Notes: generated by a model not told the origin, from the letters alone. 21,796 nt of DNA from Armatimonadia bacterium (GCA_039683575.1 JBDKRC010000343.1:1-21796); one strand, 5' to 3'. Numbered from the stretch's first letter, positions 1 through 6,723 are shown. A program made the numbers and translations.

Positions 1-2
1 TT

Positions 3-162
3 CTGTAGGGCGGGGGCTCGTCCCCCGCCGCTCGGGATGGGTCGCAGACGTTCGGCGGGTTACGAGGCCCCCGCCCTACAGCGGAAGGGCAGACAACGTT
101 CGGCGGGGTACGAGCCCCCTGCGACGCAGACGTCGCTACGCCTACAGCGGAAGGGCAGACAA
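3..162. repeat. GTAG-family REP cluster (REPIN/BIME-like): inverted REP pair plus a third interrupted copy
   Basis: GTAG (5-8) is followed by the hairpin GGCGGGGG-ctcgt-CCCCCGCC (9-29). An inverted copy cggcgggttacgaggcccccgccCTACag lies at 53-81. A third copy at 101-147 carries an internal inserted hairpin. The unit acgttcggcggg...cctacagcggaagggcagacaa is tandemly repeated (about 48-96 and 96-162). Confidence 0.8.
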
Positions 163-199
163 ACAAAAAGGCGGGTTCACCGGAGAGGTGAACCCGCCT
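161..199 (-). terminator. Rho-independent terminator of the minus-strand selenoprotein operon
   Basis: 13-bp perfect stem AGGCGGGTTCACC (169-181) / GGTGAACCCGCCT (187-199). The A-rich tract at 161-168 reads as a U-tract on the minus strand. It lies about 20 nt after the TAG at 221-223. Confidence 0.85.
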
Positions 200-220: not shown

Positions 221-1012
221 CTAGTAGACCGTTGCCTTCGTCTCCCCCTGCGCCTGTCCCAACGGTCCCAGCTCGGCGGTCGCTTTCACTGTATACTCTC
301 CCGGTTGTATTCGCACGGAATACGCACAGGAGCCGCCTCAGCCAAAGCCTAGCCGGTCCAGCTCCACCGTGGTGTCGCTGGCTACCTGGCCATTGGCGCT
401 CTGCGCCACGACGCGGACCCGCGGGCTGCCCTGCGGGGTCCGGCAGTTGATTGAGAAGTCGCCCGCGCTGAGCCGGACGGCTACGCCGAGCGAGCCGGTG
501 CCGGCGCGGGCGGTGATGTTGGTGGTCAGGGGCTCTGCGGTGGCAACCACGGCCTCTTTGAGGTCGGTGAAGAGTTGGAGGTCCTTGCGGAACTCATACT
601 CCCACTTCTCCTCGCCGCGGGCCAGTTGCGGCCGCAGCACGCTCGAGATCCGTTCGCCGCCATAGGGGGCGGTGGAGCGTGTGAGGGACAGAGTAACCGG
701 ATTTTCGGTTCCTTCCCCAAACTTGTTGTATGGGGTCTGGAGGCTGAGCGTTGGGAAGACCAGCATCTGGCCCTTCAACTCTGGCACGAGCTTTTCGCTC
801 GCCTCAAAGACGCCGTTGAAGTTGGTATCCGCGTAAGCCACGTCGTAGGGACCGTCGTCGCCCTTGGAGCGGTCGAAGGCTATCGCGAGGACCTTCGTGC
901 CGTCCTGGGTAACGGCGATCTTAGTGTAGACGGGCTTGCCAAGGAATTGTACCGCTTCCTGCGCCAGCAGTACCTGGCACAGAAACAGCAGCGCAAGTAT
1001 TGATATCACCAT
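221..1012 (-). CDS. Secreted putative selenoprotein with UGGSC (UxxxC) motif; Sec at TGA 338-340; 263 aa from ATG 1012
   Basis: Signal peptide (ILALLFLCQVLLA-QE) and a DxNxNG-type loop (YADTNFNG). The frame stays open after the TGA: LGFG-U-GGSCAYSVRIQPGEYTVKATAELGPLGQAQGETKATVY-TAG(221-223). SECIS-like hairpin at 307-323, terminator just after the TAG. The start may be ATC 1030. Confidence 0.8.
307..323 (-). promoter_or_regulatory. Putative bacterial SECIS element (copy 1)
   Basis: Minus strand GTATTC-cgtgc-GAATAC. The stem starts +15 and the loop +21 after the TGA. G at loop position 2 is followed by U. A possible lower stem is CTCCTG/CGGGAG. Confidence 0.75.
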
Positions 1013-1060
1013 GGTATACCGACCTTTGATGTGGCACTCCTCCTTTGCCTTCTACACTTA

Positions 1061-1077
1061 CTGACAAGACCTGACAA
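1061..1077 (-). promoter_or_regulatory. Direct repeat TTGTCAG-N3-TTGTCAG, possible transcription-factor site
   Basis: CTGACAA at 1061-1067 and 1071-1077 (10-bp period), in the gap upstream of the SD AAGGAGGAG (1045-1037). Confidence 0.3.
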
Positions 1078-1110
1078 TCACAAGTTCGCCCTGCCCTGAG
1101 GCAATTCCTG

Positions 1111-1932
1111 TTACGGCGACCACTTGGTCTCTGCAGTTTTTACCTCGAAGGGACACTTCGGCATAGTCGGCTTGAGGGTTAGCTGGCCCGTGGCATGCGC
1201 TGGTACTCGCCCGGAGTACGAACAACTGCCGCCTCACCCATAGGAGAAGCGCCCGCTCCAGACAAGGTTGCCCTTGCTGTCACGGGCTTCAAAGGAGGGC
1301 GGTTGGGCACGGGGGGTAGAGCTGATCGTGGTGTAGTGCCCGCCGCGGTCCTTGGTCTCCAGGCGCAGGTAGACGTTGCCCGAGGTCTGCCGCGGCATCC
1401 GTGCGGTGGTGATCTGCACTGTGAAGGGGGGCCCCACCAGCAGTTGTCGTTGCGGGGCTGCCACGTCCCTTGCCAGCGGCCCCGAGAGGGAGGTTCTGGC
1501 CTCCCACCGGACCTTGTCGGCCTGCCTGGTGATGACGCAGGTGTTCAGCCTGGTGTCTGCGGGCACCGTCACGGCGCCGTTTGTGGCTTTGAACCGGTAG
1601 CGACGCCCCCTGTCGTAGCCGTCCAGGTAGCCCTCGCCGAGATCTCCCACCTTCAGTGAAAATGTCTTGCCCTGGAAGGTCTGGGGGTTGAAGTCACTGG
1701 GGCTGGTGCCCTGTTGATGACCTCTCACATAGGAGAAAGCCAAGAGCAGTGCGGTGGCGGCGCCGACTGCCCAGAGGGCGCCGATGCCCGACAGCACATA
1801 GCCGACGGCATTCTGGCGGTGTCTGCGGATCGATATGATGCCGACAATGAGGGGGACGAGCCAGCCGAGGAACGCGACTAGCCCAATACCGAGGTAGAGC
1901 AGGACGAAGACCACACCCACACCCATGTCCAT
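1111..1932 (-). CDS. Membrane-anchored putative selenoprotein with UGGSC (UxxxC) motif; Sec at TGA 1234-1236; 273 aa
   Basis: Two N-terminal hydrophobic segments, then a soluble beta-rich domain. The frame stays open after the TGA: SGRFSYG-U-GGSCSYSGRVPAHATGQLTLKPTMPKCPFEVKTAETKWSP-TAA(1111-1113). SECIS-like hairpin at 1203-1219. GGAG upstream of the ATG. Confidence 0.8.
1203..1219 (-). promoter_or_regulatory. Putative bacterial SECIS element (copy 2)
   Basis: Minus strand GTACTC-cgggc-GAGTAC, at the same +15/+21 offsets as copy 1. A compensatory U-A to C-G pair change relative to copy 1. Confidence 0.75.
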
Positions 1933-1952
1933 CGTGTCTCACTCCCGCTGCG

Positions 1953-2723
1953 TCACTTGACGCCGAGCTTCAGACACCTTGCCGTGCAGTCCAGGCAGCG
2001 GACGCACTCGCCATTGTTCATCTCAGCCATCGGGTCGATCTCTACGGGGCAGCGCTCAGCGCACTGACCGCAGGTGTTACAGCTTTCGTTCTCCTGGCTG
2101 ATCCGCCAGAAGGAGAAGCGGTTGAACAGCGAGAGCATGGCCCCAAGCGGGCAGAATACTCGACAGAAGCCGCGCGAGGCGACTGCCGCCAACGCAATTA
2201 TACCCAATAGCACGGCAACGCGCACCATAAACATTATGCGCCAGGGCGAAGAGGCGCCCATGATCGCCCACGGAATGGCCGATTCGAGGGTGCCCACGGG
2301 GCAGAGCGTGCAGTAGCTGACGTTCAGATGGGGGTAAACGAATGGTATGGCGAAGACCAGGCCGCCGAGGAGGACCCACTTGGTGTAGCCCAGGAAGCGG
2401 GGCAAGCGGACCTTGCGGCCCGGGATCTTGTGCAGGAGGTCCTGCAGCAGTCCGAAGGGGCAGACAAACCCACACCACAGGCGCCCAAAGAGCGTGCCGG
2501 CGAGGCCGATGATACCAAGGGCGATGAACGGGAAGATGCGGAGGGTGGAGAAGTTGACCAGTACCCCCACCGGGCACGCGAACGTCGCCGCCGGGCAGGA
2601 GTGGCAGTTCATCGCCGGGACGCAGATGCTGCGAAGCTGGAAGAAGTTGGCGTTCAGCCCCAGCAGGGCGACGAACTGGATGAAATAGCGCGTACGAGTG
2701 ATGCGCCTGAGCTTCTCAAGCAT
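1953..2723 (-). CDS. Membrane 4Fe-4S binding protein (NapH/MauN/YccM-like, Fer4_5 type)
   Basis: Several TM helices. CxxxCP motifs (WCGFVCPFG, FCRVFCPLG), N-terminal CVPAMNCHSCPAATFACP, and C-terminal ferredoxin motifs CNTCGQCAERCP and CVRCLDCTARC. Confidence 0.9.
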   Translation of the reverse strand: MLEKLRRITRTRYFIQFVALLGLNANFFQLRSICVPAMNCHSCPAATFACPVGVLVNFSTLRIFPFIALGIIGLAGTLFGRLWCGFVCPFGLLQDLLHKIPGRKVRLPRFLGYTKWVLLGGLVFAIPFVYPHLNVSYCTLCPVGTLESAIPWAIMGASSPWRIMFMVRVAVLLGIIALAAVASRGFCRVFCPLGAMLSLFNRFSFWRISQENESCNTCGQCAERCPVEIDPMAEMNNGECVRCLDCTARCLKLGVK

Positions 2724-2751
2724 AGGTTCCTAAGCTGTCTTTCGGCTGCTG

Positions 2752-2770
2752 CAACGGGACACGCCCGTTG
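2752..2770 (-). promoter_or_regulatory. Putative bacterial SECIS element (copy 3, intergenic)
   Basis: Minus strand CAACGGG-cgtgt-CCCGTTG. The stem starts +16 and the loop +23 after TGA 2786-2788. Same CGKGY loop as copies 1 and 2, with no U-tract after it. Confidence 0.7.
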
Positions 2771-2779
2771 TTTGAGGGG

Positions 2780-3043
2780 CTAAAGTCAAGTGGGGCAGGC
2801 TTTGTCAGCCTTGCCGCCCTTGGCATCTTTGGTCTTGCTGGCCTGCGGCGAGATCAGTTTGCCGTCGGCAGCGCGCTGCACAGAATGCGTCAGGCTGTCT
2901 TGCAGGACCGAATATTCGCTTTTGCTCGTGCCGGAGACGTCGAAGGTCACGCCCATGGTGGTGTACGTGAGCAGGCCCCCGAAAACAAGCAGGAGGAGCA
3001 ATAGAGCGAGCCAGCGATAGCCGCGTTTCGGTGTGGTTTCCAT
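2780..3043 (-). CDS. Small single-pass membrane putative selenoprotein with C-terminal CxxU (CPTU-L-stop); about 87 aa
   Basis: METTPKRGYRW plus a hydrophobic helix. The 3' end reads GCC TGC CCC ACT TGA CTT TAG (A-C-P-T-U-L-stop), followed by a SECIS-like hairpin. Start uncertain (ATG 3043, or 3085 which overlaps the upstream gene). Confidence 0.72.
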
Positions 3044-3071
3044 GGTCTGTAGCCTGATGGTAGCTCGCGTC

Positions 3072-3932
3072 CTAAGCGCGTGCAAGTATGTATTCCTTGA
3101 ACGTCAGCCACTCTACCCTCTGTTCCGCAAACCACGCCAGAAGCTCCTCGTACAGGCGCCGGACCGAATCCCATGAAGCGGTCATGGCTCTATAGTGGCT
3201 GCCAAAGATGATGACACCCTCCTCGCCTGCCTGTTCCATGAAGTTGGAGTACTCCGACTTGAACAGCGCAAGCCGCTCCTGGTACTGCTCGGGCGGCAGT
3301 GTGCCAATGATGTAGTCCTCCATGCAGGGGACCTCAACCACGCCGGGCGGCTCGATCCAGGGCACACAGGGGTAGTCCGGCTGCCAACGGTGCAGGCTTT
3401 CGTCTCCCGTGAGAGTATAGGCGGTCATGGTGGGGTTGACGCCGCGGCTGGATGAGCAGCTGATGCCAACGTCTGCCAGCGCGTGGTACAGGTTCGCACA
3501 GACCCCAAAGCAGGGGGCGCGGAAGACCAGTGGGCGCTCGCCGAAGAGGCTTTCGTAGGCTTCACAGCCCTGCCGCAGGCGCTCAGTGAGCCGTGCCGCC
3601 GAGTGAGCTTCCTCATAGCGCTCCCGGTTCGCCTCGTACTCCTCGAAGGGGCGTGGGTTCGCGCGACGGGTGCTAGGCTGAGGCAGGCCGAATTCCAGGC
3701 AGGAGCCGTGGGTGAGGCCATGAAGCTGGAAGTCATGCCCAAGATCGCGGGCCCATAGCAGCGTATCCCGCCAAAGCTCGTGGGCCTCGGCATACTGCGC
3801 CGGACGCGGCACCCAGAAGAAGGTCCCGCGTACGCCCACCTCGTTGAGCCACTCGATGACCTGGCGAAAGCCTGCAACGGCCTGTGGGTCGGTCGAGACT
3901 CCGGCATCATCGTTGGTGAAGATGGCAAGCAT
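3072..3932 (-). CDS. Polysaccharide deacetylase family protein (CE4/NodB-like)
   Basis: CE4-type motifs FTNDD, GTFF, HDFQLHGLTH and FRAP. No signal peptide. Confidence 0.8.
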   Translation of the reverse strand: MLAIFTNDDAGVSTDPQAVAGFRQVIEWLNEVGVRGTFFWVPRPAQYAEAHELWRDTLLWARDLGHDFQLHGLTHGSCLEFGLPQPSTRRANPRPFEEYEANRERYEEAHSAARLTERLRQGCEAYESLFGERPLVFRAPCFGVCANLYHALADVGISCSSSRGVNPTMTAYTLTGDESLHRWQPDYPCVPWIEPPGVVEVPCMEDYIIGTLPPEQYQERLALFKSEYSNFMEQAGEEGVIIFGSHYRAMTASWDSVRRLYEELLAWFAEQRVEWLTFKEYILARA

Positions 3933-4027
3933 GGCGTCTCCCCGAGGGAGTACTGAATACGGGCAGGAGTACCCAGGCGTCGCGTCGAAGCTACCCTTGA
4001 CTTTATCTTGACAGGAGGTCCGGGATC

Positions 4028-4666
4028 ATGTCAGCACGCAGGGGATTTACCCTCATCGAATTGCTGGTAGTCATCGCGATCATTGCCATTCTCGCGGCGA
4101 TCCTCTTCCCCGTGTTCGCCAAGGCACGCGAGAAGGCCCGGCAGGCTTCCTGCCTAAGCAACATAAGGCAGATCAACACGGCGCTGTTGGCGTACGCCCA
4201 GGATTACGACGAACGGATGGTGCCACGGTACTATACCGGGTACAACTGGCATCTCACCACCGAGCCGTACGTCAAGAACATGCAGATCTTCCTGTGCCCG
4301 AGCACCAGCAACTACTCGTATGGCTATGCGCAGGACAGCCTGAGTTGGCAGTCCATCGGCGCCTTCGCTTCCCCCGCTGAGACGTTGATGGTTTGTGATG
4401 TGGGACTGTGCAACAACAGTTCCGGCACGACGAGTTGGGACTGGCATGTCAACACCCCCATCGGTTCCTATGCAGCGTTAGCGGTCAAGCCCGCCGATGA
4501 ACTGGCCCTGCCGGTGGCGGGAGACCCTGCCTGGGCCCAGCGCCCGAGGCCCATCCACAACGAAGGCTGCAACGTCGGCTTCCTCGACGGCCACGCCAAG
4601 TGGCTGCGGACCGATGCGTTCTACTACGGCCAGACACCAGTAGACAGGGTCTTCGACAAGCTGTAG
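4028..4666 (+). CDS. Prepilin-type N-terminal cleavage/methylation protein with DUF1559-like and H-X9-DG C-terminal domain
   Basis: [42 protein letters not shown] at the N-terminus and [16 protein letters not shown] near the C-terminus. SD AGGAGG at 4013-4018. Confidence 0.93.
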
Positions 4667-4725: not shown

Positions 4726-6723
4726 CTAGGCGAACCACATTAGGTAGCGCTTCGCCACTTCCTCGCTGAACGCTCCCACAATCCCCCAGATGCCCCCTGC
4801 GAAGAGTACATGCCCGATTGCCAGACCCATGAACACCGGCATGGCGGTGCGGTAGGTCTGTGGGCCGCCGAGCCGGAGAATGAGTGTTTTGCTCAGCCAT
4901 GCAACGAAGGCTGGGAACCAGATTGAGTGACCGTAGCTGCCCGATAGCGCGAGGCCGAGGGGATTGAGCGGGAAGCGCAGGTACTTCACGCGCAACAGCA
5001 GCATGGCCACCGTCAGGGCAAGCCCCACGAGTCGCGCCACGTTGGTCTGCATGTCCATCGGTACTGCGGTGAAAGCGCGGGTCTTGAGACGGTCGTAGTT
5101 GGCGAGGGCCTGCCGTGTCCTGTAGCCGCCCTCGGTGCTGCCGCCGTCGAGGACGTTGGCCCCGAAGCTGTAGTAGGCCTGCATGTGCATGAACAGGCCG
5201 ATGGCGAGGCCAATGGCCAGGCCGTAGATGATCGTGGTGAGCACCTGCTTGCGGCCGAGATCGGCACGGTAGCCCATTCGCACTGCTTCGATCTCAAACG
5301 CGCCAAGCTGGGGGAACGTCATGCGGCTCATCGCGCTGATGGTGGCATAGACCGCTTCGGAGCGCAGGGCTGCGTTGCTGAAGTGTCCGGTCGTGGGTTT
5401 GAGCGCCAGAATGGTCTCGGCAACCTCTTCGCGGGGCACCACATAGTTGATCGGCAGGCCCGTCTGGGCGCGCACCCGGATGTACACGAGGGCCACGCCG
5501 AAGCTCAGGATGACGTAGGCCAGGGCCAGACCAAGGCTCATCCCGGCGCTCACGCAGAAGGCGACAAAGCCGCCCATGCCGACCATCAACCCCCAGAAGG
5601 CCCAGCGTGAGGGTATCAGCTCCTCCTTGTCCCATTCCGGCCTGGCCCCGCCGAGGGCGCTGAGGGCTACCTGCTTGAGATGCTTGCGGCCAACATACAA
5701 CAGGAAGAAGATCAAGCCGACATACGACCCCATGCCCTGCGCGCGCTCGAAGGGGAAGTTCCCGATCTGGTACCCGCCCAGTGTGGCGAAGAAGTTCTCG
5801 AAGCGGAATAGCAGGAAGAAGCTCCAGATGGACAGCAGCACATCCACCGGCACCAGGTAGCCCAGGCCGATGATCTCGGGCCGGAAAGTCATGGTCATGG
5901 GGCGCAGGGCCGTCCAGGGGCGCTCGGTGAGGAGCTTATTCAGCTCGTAGGTCTGCCCGATGGCCGGGGTCTGGGGTGAGAAAGCATGGGCGATGTTGGA
6001 GCCGTTGTAGATGGCGGCGATACCTACCCCGATCCAGAACAGCGGCTGGCGCAGTAGCGAGGTCTGGTCTTTGGCGGCCGGGTCCGGTGCGAGGTGTAGC
6101 GGCAGTTCCGCCAGGGGGAAGGTCAGGCGCTCGTGCTCCGACCAGGGGCGGCGGAAGAGCGATACCATGCACAGCAGCGACAGGCCGATGAGCATGAACA
6201 GGCCGCTCCACATCGCCAGCGGCACCGCCCACGCGTGCCACGGAAACGCTCCGCTGGGGCTGCCCTCGTAGAAGTTGGTGATGACCTGCGAGTCTGAGGG
6301 CGTCATCCACTCCGGCAGCAAGTCGGCGAAGGCGCCGTATTCATTGCCCGGGGCGGCAAAGTAACGGGCCACAGTCAGCGAGGCCAGTAGCTGCCGCACC
6401 CCGTTGGCCTCCAGCGTCACCAGGGCCAGGCTCATGGTGATGTAGATCAGGAGCGCTTGCTTGCGGTACTTGGAGGTGCGGGTGAGGCGGTGGAAGCCGT
6501 AGCCAATCGCCGTCATGGCCACCAGCGCGGTCAGGGCCGGGATTGGCGGGGCACCCTCGGCCACCAGGATCGTGAAAGCGATGAGCGAGGTCTTGCGCAC
6601 CCAGATGGCGCTGATGAGCAGGAACACCGTGGCCCAGATCAGAACAGGTGGCAGGGCAGCCTGCGCGGTGTCGGGGGCCTCGTCGGTCAGCGGCGCGGTA
6701 GTCTTGACGGTTGGCTGATTCAT
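4726..6723 (-). CDS. Polytopic membrane protein, DUF6785/DUF6784-like (putative transporter)
   Basis: 665 aa with many TM helices. Motifs W...WAVPL..W, RRPWSEHERLTFPLA, RVRAQTG, RFPLNPLGL, WLSKTLILRLGG..YR..PVFMGL are recognised from this family. Confidence 0.75.
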   Translation of the reverse strand: MNQPTVKTTAPLTDEAPDTAQAALPPVLIWATVFLLISAIWVRKTSLIAFTILVAEGAPPIPALTALVAMTAIGYGFHRLTRTSKYRKQALLIYITMSLALVTLEANGVRQLLASLTVARYFAAPGNEYGAFADLLPEWMTPSDSQVITNFYEGSPSGAFPWHAWAVPLAMWSGLFMLIGLSLLCMVSLFRRPWSEHERLTFPLAELPLHLAPDPAAKDQTSLLRQPLFWIGVGIAAIYNGSNIAHAFSPQTPAIGQTYELNKLLTERPWTALRPMTMTFRPEIIGLGYLVPVDVLLSIWSFFLLFRFENFFATLGGYQIGNFPFERAQGMGSYVGLIFFLLYVGRKHLKQVALSALGGARPEWDKEELIPSRWAFWGLMVGMGGFVAFCVSAGMSLGLALAYVILSFGVALVYIRVRAQTGLPINYVVPREEVAETILALKPTTGHFSNAALRSEAVYATISAMSRMTFPQLGAFEIEAVRMGYRADLGRKQVLTTIIYGLAIGLAIGLFMHMQAYYSFGANVLDGGSTEGGYRTRQALANYDRLKTRAFTAVPMDMQTNVARLVGLALTVAMLLLRVKYLRFPLNPLGLALSGSYGHSIWFPAFVAWLSKTLILRLGGPQTYRTAMPVFMGLAIGHVLFAGGIWGIVGAFSEEVAKRYLMWFA

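Follow-up and report, generated by a model that had tools for sequence, protein, structure and literature searches.

A five-gene cluster at one end of a 21,796-nucleotide (nt) stretch of DNA from an Armatimonadia bacterium (GCA_039683575.1, JBDKRC010000343.1:1-21796; hereafter the window, in whose numbering positions are given) raises two linked questions: do three in-frame TGA codons in these genes encode selenocysteine (Sec, U), and if so, what could three selenoproteins grouped with a membrane iron-sulfur protein do? The cluster spans 221-3932, with all genes on the minus strand, and encodes a deacetylase-like protein, a small protein with a single transmembrane (TM) helix, a NapH-like 4Fe-4S membrane protein, and two paralogous proteins, TM-anchored and secreted, that share the motif G-U-G-G. 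An earlier interpretation of the same DNA (the sequence-only reading) had proposed a hidden three-selenoprotein operon with a role in extracytoplasmic selenium redox reactions or metal handling. The comparative data reported here indicate that the operon is real, that it comprises three selenoproteins and one iron-sulfur membrane protein, and that the whole set recurs next to selA, selD and selB.

The machinery for Sec incorporation, which the sequence-only reading had named as the first thing to look for, is present in the same genome: selA (543 bits), selD (387 bits), selB (373 bits) and tRNA-Sec (73.7 bits) all score above the curated cut-offs and are encoded side by side on contig C331. 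A six-frame search of 401 genomes of the phylum with a profile made from nine read-through G-U-G-G proteins identified 76 places in 42 genomes; exactly one TGA stands at the same column in 70 of these, and the other six contain no TGA. SelA was detected in 39 of the 42 genomes compared to 217 of the 401 overall. Two of the three G-U-G-G genomes in which SelA was not found also lack the TGA: the homologue in G037 has Cys at the Sec position, and G254 yields only a weak N-terminal match (the third, G116, is considered below). Downstream of the TGA, the G-G and Y-S pairs, one Pro and the strand pattern are conserved, as expected of a coding region that continues past this codon.

Database sequences show the same discontinuity. 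A HMMER search of 1.84 billion representative sequences detected 577 relatives at E <= 0.001; among the best 150 of these, 124 end at profile position 244, that is, at the Gly that precedes Sec (93 with the ending F-G and 28 with Y-G), indicating that gene callers cut these proteins at the TGA. Thirteen of the listed relatives run past the Sec position, which is occupied by Cys in one of them (P0077) and by Ile in another, or lies in a loop that has been replaced. Among the homologues compared, Cys occupies the Sec position only in G037 and P0077; in the remaining full-length homologues, Ile, Ser or Arg stands there, or the loop is replaced. Searches for database homologues returned 6 and 4 close relatives, all truncated and nameless, and the public gene calls stop at the TGA for genes of the window type, so the anticipated truncation of all three genes is seen both in these calls and in the relatives.

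Each of the three TGAs is followed by a hairpin with a 6-bp stem and a 5-nt loop (CGUGU, CGGGC and CGUGC) that begins 14-16 nt downstream; the loops begin 20-22 nt after the UGA and read C-G-U/G-G-N. According to the available text of a 2026 review (PMC13188914), the model of the bacterial Sec insertion sequence (SECIS) places a stem-loop 16-37 nt after the UGA, with a G in the first positions of the loop; the spacing in the window falls within this range, and the loop G is early, as this model requires. We aligned the 35 downstream regions of the G-U-G-G family and compared them with 500 shuffles and with slid controls. In these sequences, 89.8% of the cells are paired, and four of the seven pairs change on both sides, including one stem pair that is C:G in 17 sequences, U:A in 17 and unpaired in 1; the covariation score was reached by none of the 500 shuffles, and the slid controls pair in 30-61% of the cells. 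A search of Rfam at E <= 5 gave chance matches only, with no model for these hairpins. Taken together, the machinery, the conservation of the TGA, the coding sequence downstream and the hairpin covariation indicate that all three TGAs act as Sec codons, in agreement with the sequence-only reading.

The same conclusion is reached for the small protein, which ends ...A-C-P-T-U-L-stop. In all 11 loci identified by homology to its N-terminal part, CPT is followed by TGA, one further codon (Leu ten times, Gly once) and a stop. If the TGA were a true stop, the second stop two codons on would be left unconstrained, which argues that the TGA is read as Sec. Database homologues of this protein stop at CPT and are 84-85 amino acids (aa) long, and it belongs to no Pfam or NCBIfam family. 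In ten other loci (including L061, 9246-9295), the hairpin of the small gene shows compensatory stem changes (U-U/A-A versus C-C/G-G) and extends over the translation start of the NapH-like gene, taking in its ATG and first codons, whereas the window hairpin sits in the spacer; where the overlap exists, Sec insertion and initiation of the NapH-like protein may be coupled. From hydropathy and charge, the small protein is predicted to have a basic N-terminus inside, one TM helix, and a linker of about 55 residues that carries the C-x-x-U end on the outside.

To what extent is the small protein tied to the NapH-like protein? A scan of the NapH-like subfamily, with one genome per species, gave 80 loci, 78 of them with sufficient upstream sequence. 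Directly upstream of the NapH-like gene, 41 of the 78 loci have a small open reading frame that ends in C-[PA]-[TS]-U followed by one or two codons and a stop, a count that is conditioned on this pattern. These 41 loci comprise 35 labelled as Planctomycetota lineages, 3 from Verrucomicrobiota, 1 from Anaerolineales and 2 unclassified. When the two small-protein subtypes are aligned, an Arg, a Gly, a Cys, a Thr and the Sec are invariant. Among the loci examined, no Cys form of this protein was seen; the only counterpart at the same place is a CXXC protein for which the test did not demonstrate homology. This counterpart is found in 29 of the remaining loci of the 78 and is a single-TM protein of 33-53 aa that ends C-x-x-C-[IVM]-G-x-[GE] (in one of the 29, L145, the frame as called is over-extended to 246 aa). 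The 29 loci are labelled Bacillota, Thermodesulfobacteriota, Cloacimonadota, Dehalococcoidia and other phyla or are unlabelled; none is labelled Planctomycetota, and none had a SelD match. One of the CXXC mini-proteins scores 68 bits (cut-off 32) against NF040920, the CD1871A family of CXXC motif-containing proteins, to which the window small protein has no match at E <= 0.1. When the profiles of the C-x-x-U and CXXC proteins were compared with hhalign, only the TM helix aligned (probability 64%), so homology of the two families is unproven, and what they share is architecture and gene position. In the Oceanirhabdus seepicola record (L100, 4694-6738), genes for a ResA/TlpA-like lipoprotein, a CD1871A CXXC mini-protein and a NapH-like protein stand in a row, followed by a two-component system, a gene order which suggests that this NapH-like subfamily could be a general route for reductant across the membrane, alternative to CcdA/DsbD.

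The NapH-like protein itself has features compatible with such a route. In the alignment of orthologues, C84/C88 and C187/C191 (two CX3CP motifs) and the CxxCxxCxxxCP motif are invariant, and the second cluster motif has no conserved fourth Cys. Hydropathy and charge predict that the CX3CP and ferredoxin-type Cys motifs are cytoplasmic; five other invariant Cys residues (C40, C43, C50, C138 and C141) are located in two loops predicted to face outward. The score against the NapH/MauN model TIGR02163 is 59.3 bits, far below the cut-off of 213.05. A complex of the NapH-like and small proteins, modelled from the table-11 forms with their own alignments, scored 0.12 against a mark of 0.32, a result that speaks neither for binding nor against it. 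Across these loci, the small and NapH-like proteins form a conserved two-gene module.

The TM-anchored and secreted proteins, which are 29% identical, likewise form a conserved pair: a membrane-anchored member together with one or more secreted paralogues recurs in distant genomes. The sequence-only reading described their motif as UGGSC and paired each TGA with both a Cys and a hairpin. The hairpins with their C-G loops and the invariant U-G-G stood up to comparison, whereas the trailing Cys, found within six residues after Sec in 28 of 35 family members, proved dispensable, and the motif, with its invariant first Gly, is better given as G-U-G-G. An AlphaFold model of the secreted protein, based on a 35-row alignment (pLDDT 93.2, pTM 0.86), consists of two all-beta domains, and the Sec position falls in a Gly-rich loop between two strands of the FN3/Ig-like C-terminal domain. 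This domain (residues ~160-263) matches many FN3/Ig-like domains with Z 8.0-9.6 (typical best Z 7-8) and a root-mean-square deviation of 2.1-3 over 65-90 residues, and Foldseek against the PDB likewise gave generic tandem Ig/FN3 matches only; being generic, the fold names no function. PDB sequence searches returned nothing useful for either selenoprotein family, and Pfam and NCBIfam revealed no consistent family across the 35 G-U-G-G members. In the ESM Atlas, a natural homologue without Sec fell into a single nameless Planctomycetota cluster (score 0.86).

Three further observations concern this family. Residues 56-67 of the secreted protein (window ~812-847) read D-x-N-x-N-G-x-F-x-x-x-E and have the look of an EF-hand-type calcium loop, with Y-A-D-x-N-x-N-G in relatives. 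In G354 (C19, 12847-13287), a membrane-anchored paralogue that has neither the G-U-G-G loop nor a TGA is encoded beside a Sec-containing one, a natural loop-less control. A thioester of the alpha-2-macroglobulin type (Cys/Gln) was considered for the Sec loop and dropped: Gln follows Sec in one member only.

The genomic context links all these genes to the sel genes. In eight of ten distant loci with long flanks, a single strand carries the whole series, which starts with the CPT-U gene and continues with that for the NapH-like protein, between one and three G-U-G-G genes, selA, selD (encoding a fusion with a carboxymuconolactone-decarboxylase domain, CMD) and selB; a 2-hydroxyacyl-CoA-dehydratase-like gene and a gene for a BcrAD-type ATPase often come next. 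In 11 genomes representing 5 families, G-U-G-G genes are no more than ~260 nt away from selA; in G002, G003, G070 and G205, they are on the same contig within 7 kb of selA, and the same is true of a third family member in the genome studied here. A second NapH-like subfamily (~1e-60 to the window protein) is present in 12 further G-U-G-G genomes and abuts selA in 4 of them. Among the 80 NapH-like loci, SelD is encoded within 6 kb in 23, and a G-U-G-G-like sequence lies within the same distance in 19, with the TGA and the motif explicit in 10 of those. The linkage of the 4Fe-4S, C-x-x-U and G-U-G-G genes first noticed in the window extends across several families; the metal-handling option raised along with it fared less well, given that adjacency to selA, selD and selB, the most informative part of the context and one that could not be seen by the sequence-only reading, points to selenium handling instead.

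In the genome studied here, contig C331 starts with genes for a B12-binding protein and two URO-D proteins, followed by selA, selD-CMD, selB and tRNA-Sec. Direct comparison detected no exact overlap between the window end and C331; a contig from public run X2, however, passes from window positions 81-142 into the reverse complement of the C331 start, with 29 of 30 letters matching. Because this contig joins the two ends, the window operon is very probably located immediately upstream of the sel cluster, with a terminator and repeats resembling repetitive extragenic palindromic (REP) elements between the two. REP-like palindromic units occur at window 1-160 and at C331 1-60, and DNA contigs of runs X1 and X3 vary in the number of units (joints skipping 69-72 nt), which is probably the reason why the assembly breaks at the window end.

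Several additional genes recur in these neighborhoods. A corrinoid (B12-binding) protein and two URO-D-family (MtaA-like) proteins are encoded directly upstream of selA (locus L057 on C331, 40-2792); this set also comes after the G-U-G-G pair in G002 and is present in the Brocadiaceae locus L080, and the order in both G002 and G003 is deacetylase, G-U-G-G pair, B12-binding protein, URO-D-family proteins, selA. These proteins could make up a methyl-transfer system of the corrinoid type with a link to selenium metabolism, such as the handling of methylated selenium. A gene resembling the D-component of 2-hydroxyglutaryl-CoA dehydratase (HGD-D) and one for a BcrAD/BadFG-type ATPase recur beside selD and selB (L061, 18-1271; L064, 5602-6378; L076, L088, L098, L106, L140 and others); BcrAD matches were found in 11 and HGD-D matches in 7 of the 80 NapH-like loci, and the two proteins may be an ATP-driven low-potential reductase in the same pathway. 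SelD itself (L057, 4314-5882; L061, 4461-6050) carries the CMD (AhpD-like) fusion at its C-terminus and a Cys-rich extension at its N-terminus. The third G-U-G-G selenoprotein of this genome (L057, 10730-12130; 467 aa, G-F-G-U-G-G-G-C) is encoded 2.6 kb beyond tRNA-Sec; its hairpin is of another kind, and the gene before it encodes a 588-aa protein with a CarboxypepD_reg domain. A DUF6785/DUF6784 membrane protein (window 4726-6723, minus strand; L057, 12204-14207, minus strand; 29% identical) is encoded near both G-U-G-G loci of this genome and near no other locus compared. Around the G037 gene with Cys in place of Sec, no related genes were detected.

What function could unite these components? 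An electron relay is suggested by the predicted topology and by the analogous CXXC module. The NapH-like protein would take electrons at its cytoplasmic side, that of the 4Fe-4S and CX3CP motifs, and pass them to its five outward cysteines; from there, the electrons would reach the C-x-x-U end of the small protein, which would serve as a flexible tethered arm and would act on the Sec that the G-U-G-G proteins expose, either by reducing adducts formed there or by keeping this Sec reduced. The most speculative element is that the G-U-G-G proteins might be extracytoplasmic carriers capturing selenium species on Sec, with the relay freeing selenide for SelD. The recurrent proximity of selD and selA, including to the gene for the NapH-like protein, which is not a selenoprotein, suggests that the clients of the relay may be selenium carriers, and the position of the CXXC counterpart beside a ResA-like oxidoreductase fits a general trans-membrane reductase role. 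As a package, a trans-membrane reductase relay that serves exported Sec proteins and has a selenium-handling purpose has, in our estimate, about an even chance of being correct. The more specific version, a dedicated extracytoplasmic selenium-acquisition machine in which Se-Se or Se-S adducts would form on the Gly-rich loop and the NapH-like protein with its C-x-x-U arm would release selenide for SelD, is an unlikely extension. If true, it would amount to a selenium supply route made of selenoproteins and hence self-reinforcing, and the module would be the variant with Sec of a trans-membrane reductase module (CD1871A plus NapH-like) that is widespread and uncharacterised.

A number of observations weigh against this relay and its assignment to selenium. 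The G-U-G-G family is present in 42 of the 401 genomes and SelA in 217, so it is not the general selenium supply route of the phylum. Close orthologues of the window NapH-like protein (E <= 1e-120) are present in only 9 of 40 G-U-G-G genomes, and G002 and G003 have the deacetylase gene and the G-U-G-G pair without a small or NapH-like gene between them. A strong terminator stands between the window operon and the sel genes, and selenoprotein genes are often found near sel genes by inheritance alone, as is said of fdhA in the part of PMC4807772 that deals with it. In other phyla, the CXXC counterpart shows no link to selenium genes, and in one case sits beside a thiol-disulfide oxidoreductase (ResA/TlpA-like). 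A selenium-uptake system that itself requires selenium is awkward. At the level of the codons, G116 has the TGA form, yet SelA was not found in this genome, and none of the three hairpins, taken singly, exceeds shuffled sequence in stability (z = 0.27, -0.56 and 0.11); with hairpins that are individually unremarkable, the case for Sec rests on conservation and covariation in relatives.

Alternatively, the same genes, with the same Sec codons, may function in general extracytoplasmic redox or repair reactions or in sulfur or metal handling, with their adjacency to sel genes reflecting co-inheritance only. Candidate jobs would be a response to peroxide or disulfide stress, polysulfide metabolism, or binding of Hg, Cu or As on the Sec loop. 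The locus where CD1871A and a NapH-like protein are encoded beside a ResA/TlpA-like oxidoreductase and the lack of SelD matches in the CXXC loci are compatible with such roles, as is the fact that most SelA-positive genomes of the phylum do without the G-U-G-G family; furthermore, many of the prokaryotic selenoproteins catalogued in Table 1 of PMC13188914 are redox or metal-binding proteins. However, two subfamilies of the NapH-like protein, which itself contains no Sec, are encoded directly beside selD or selA in many Planctomycetota, so that co-inheritance of selenoprotein genes alone is insufficient as an explanation, and the Pfam and structure searches found neither a redox fold (thioredoxin, peroxiredoxin) nor a known metal-binding domain in the G-U-G-G proteins. 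On balance, we consider this alternative somewhat unlikely.

It is improbable that the G-U-G-G proteins are structural or adhesive components of the envelope, in which selenylsulfide or diselenide cross-links through Sec would be set or isomerised by the membrane module. Tandem Ig/FN3-like domains with adhesin repeats and surface proteins as the best structural neighbors, the EF-hand-like D-x-N-x-N-G loop in the N-terminal domain, and the pairing of a membrane-anchored with a secreted form would all suit such a role, but the fold matches are generic (Z 8-9.6 versus a typical best of 7-8), a mere cross-link makes it hard to see why the family has kept Sec with so few Cys forms, and adjacency to selD and selA is left unexplained. 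Finally, the notion that the TGAs are ordinary stops or belong to decaying genes, with hairpins and downstream frames that arose by chance or for another purpose, has hardly any probability left and appears already contradicted by the comparative data: the individual hairpins fold no better than shuffles and have no Rfam match, and public gene calls finish at the TGA, but one TGA stands at the same column in 70 of 76 places with conserved sequence beyond it, exactly one codon separates the TGA from a stop in 11 of 11 small genes, the hairpins covary, the Sec machinery is complete, and Cys replaces Sec in the SelA-less genome G037.

All five co-oriented genes described in the sequence-only reading are present in the window (Table 1), with intergenic spacing of 28, 56, 20 and 98 nt; the terminator it reported, with a 13-bp stem and a T-run, is also real, although its extent is 169-199 rather than 161-199. 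The deacetylase gene is the co-oriented first gene here, but its inclusion in the cluster needs qualification: among the loci compared, tblastn matches were obtained only in the same-genus G002 and G003, and the comparison thus indicates a neighbor of the G-U-G-G pair within this genus only. Hydropathy shows no hydrophobic segment in the deacetylase-like protein, that is, neither a TM helix nor a signal peptide. RNA-library contigs (two libraries from one study) cover 240-616, 388-1160, 837-1203, 1167-1333, 1299-1883, 1829-2159, 2639-3001 and 2778-2979. They span all three TGAs, that of the secreted gene by 240-616 and that of the TM-anchored gene by 1167-1333, and cross the small/NapH-like, NapH-like/TM-anchored and TM-anchored/secreted junctions; RNA libraries may contain DNA, and a contig across two genes is no proof of a single transcript. 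None of the listed contigs falls on 3025-4032 (the deacetylase gene), which is no evidence of silence. Divergent from the cluster, a protein with a prepilin-type N-terminal methylation motif and a DUF1559 domain is encoded at 4028-4666 on the plus strand; proteins of this kind are typical of Planctomycetota.

Table 1. Features of the selenoprotein gene cluster and of the adjacent contig end
Feature	Position	Strand	Description
Deacetylase-like gene, first in the cluster	3072..3932	-	286 aa; Pfam DUF2334 2.2e-08, Polysacc_deac_1 3.9e-05
Small single-TM selenoprotein	2780..3043	-	85 aa + U + L; Sec TGA 2786-2788, CTT, stop TAG 2780-2782
SECIS-like hairpin, small gene	2753..2769	-	6-bp stem, CGUGU loop starting 22 nt past UGA
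NapH-like integral membrane 4Fe-4S protein	1953..2723	-	256 aa; two Fer4_5 stretches (8.1e-18)
TM-anchored G-U-G-G selenoprotein	1111..1932	-	273 aa; two predicted N-terminal TM helices, exported beta-sandwich part; Sec TGA 1234-1236
SECIS hairpin, TM-anchored gene	1203..1219	-	GUACUC / CGGGC / GAGUAC; loop begins 20 nt past UGA
Secreted G-U-G-G selenoprotein	221..1012	-	263 aa; predicted signal peptide, two beta-sandwich domains; Sec TGA 338-340
SECIS hairpin, secreted gene	307..323	-	GUAUUC / CGUGC / GAAUAC
Intrinsic terminator ending the cluster	169..199	-	13-bp stem, then T-run
REP-like repeats, contig end	1..160		Junction toward contig C331 (sel genes)

Has this system been described before? 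The sequence-only reading did not recognise it, and neither did we: our literature searches brought up no account of a G-U-G-G family, of a CPT-U end or of a link between a NapH-like protein and selD, although supplementary lists of selenoproteins might still name a member. The 2026 review counts 119 prokaryotic selenoprotein families or subfamilies, and Table 1 of this review contains none with the present architecture (PMC13188914). NCBIfam models named in its available text (Tso, UGSC, hypothetical protein DG with the motif G-U-x-G, DUF1573 and the 'star' families) do not match the window selenoproteins. Specifically, the Tso models NF045695, NF045694, NF045708, NF045809 and NF047643 and the Sao models match neither the three window proteins nor the 35 G-U-G-G members, and there is no match to the UGSC-containing protein NF041046, the window motif being U-G-G-x-C with a dispensable Cys. 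The term 'Planctomyc' is absent from PMC12013277 and PMC5322559 in the text available, and the selenoproteins described in the corresponding part of a Planctomycetes genome paper are different ones (PMC4807772). Thus, both selenoprotein families are apparently new and occur in a new multi-component arrangement, with the reservation that a member could have been listed earlier. They almost lack Cys-containing homologues, the property that most methods for finding selenoproteins rely on, and their database records stop short at the Sec codon in hundreds of cases.

Parallels in gene organization are the multi-selenoprotein operons SAO and Tso ('three selenoprotein operon'; Haft and co-workers) covered in the review, in which several unrelated selenoprotein genes similarly share one operon with non-selenoprotein partners (PMC13188914); their selenoprotein families are unlike those of the window cluster. 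UXX-star, KCU-star and SaoC, as presented there, resemble the small protein in having Sec one or two residues from the stop, a nearby Cys and a SECIS beyond the coding region (PMC13188914). They differ in that their models do not match and that the window small protein is predicted to be membrane-tethered and is tied to a NapH-like partner. Mammalian thioredoxin reductase, too, ends in Gly-Cys-Sec-Gly.

Specific selenium acquisition in bacteria is poorly understood, and YedE and YedF are candidates only. These candidate selenium transport proteins were likewise proposed from a neighborhood with selD and other selenium genes, according to the relevant passage of PMC5322559, and are unrelated to the proteins of the window cluster. 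YedE is present in 13 of the 401 genomes, none of which is among the 42 G-U-G-G genomes, a difference that carries little weight given an expected overlap of ~1.4. With YedE rare and SelA found in 217 of the 401 genomes, the locus offers a concrete and testable alternative.

SoxY is a sulfur-carrier protein with a Gly-Gly-Cys-Gly-Gly arm. As an Ig-like beta-sandwich periplasmic protein with a single chalcogen residue in a Gly-rich stretch, it resembles the G-U-G-G proteins, and this likeness is the source of the carrier idea. The parallel is one of analogy: the G-U-G-G proteins have Sec in an internal FN3-like loop instead of at the C-terminus and give no Pfam match to SoxY.

NapH, MauN and NosR proteins pass electrons at the membrane to periplasmic enzymes. 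The window protein shares with them (TIGR02163, NF007013, NF046105) two Fer4_5 stretches, two CX3CP motifs and the C-terminal ferredoxin-type Cys motifs, and is distinguished by the additional invariant outward motifs C-x-S-C-P...A-C-P and C-x-x-C-P; there are no nap, mau or nos genes among the neighboring genes identified. We found no functional study of the CD1871A family (NF040920) in the literature searched. Its members occur in the same gene order, with a small single-TM Cys-x-x-(Cys/Sec) protein encoded directly upstream of the same NapH-like subfamily; the window protein differs by the presence of Sec, a longer exported segment, and the ending CPT-U-x in place of C-x-x-C-I-G-x-G. This Sec/Cys correspondence provides a first functional handle on a NapH-like module that is found across many phyla.

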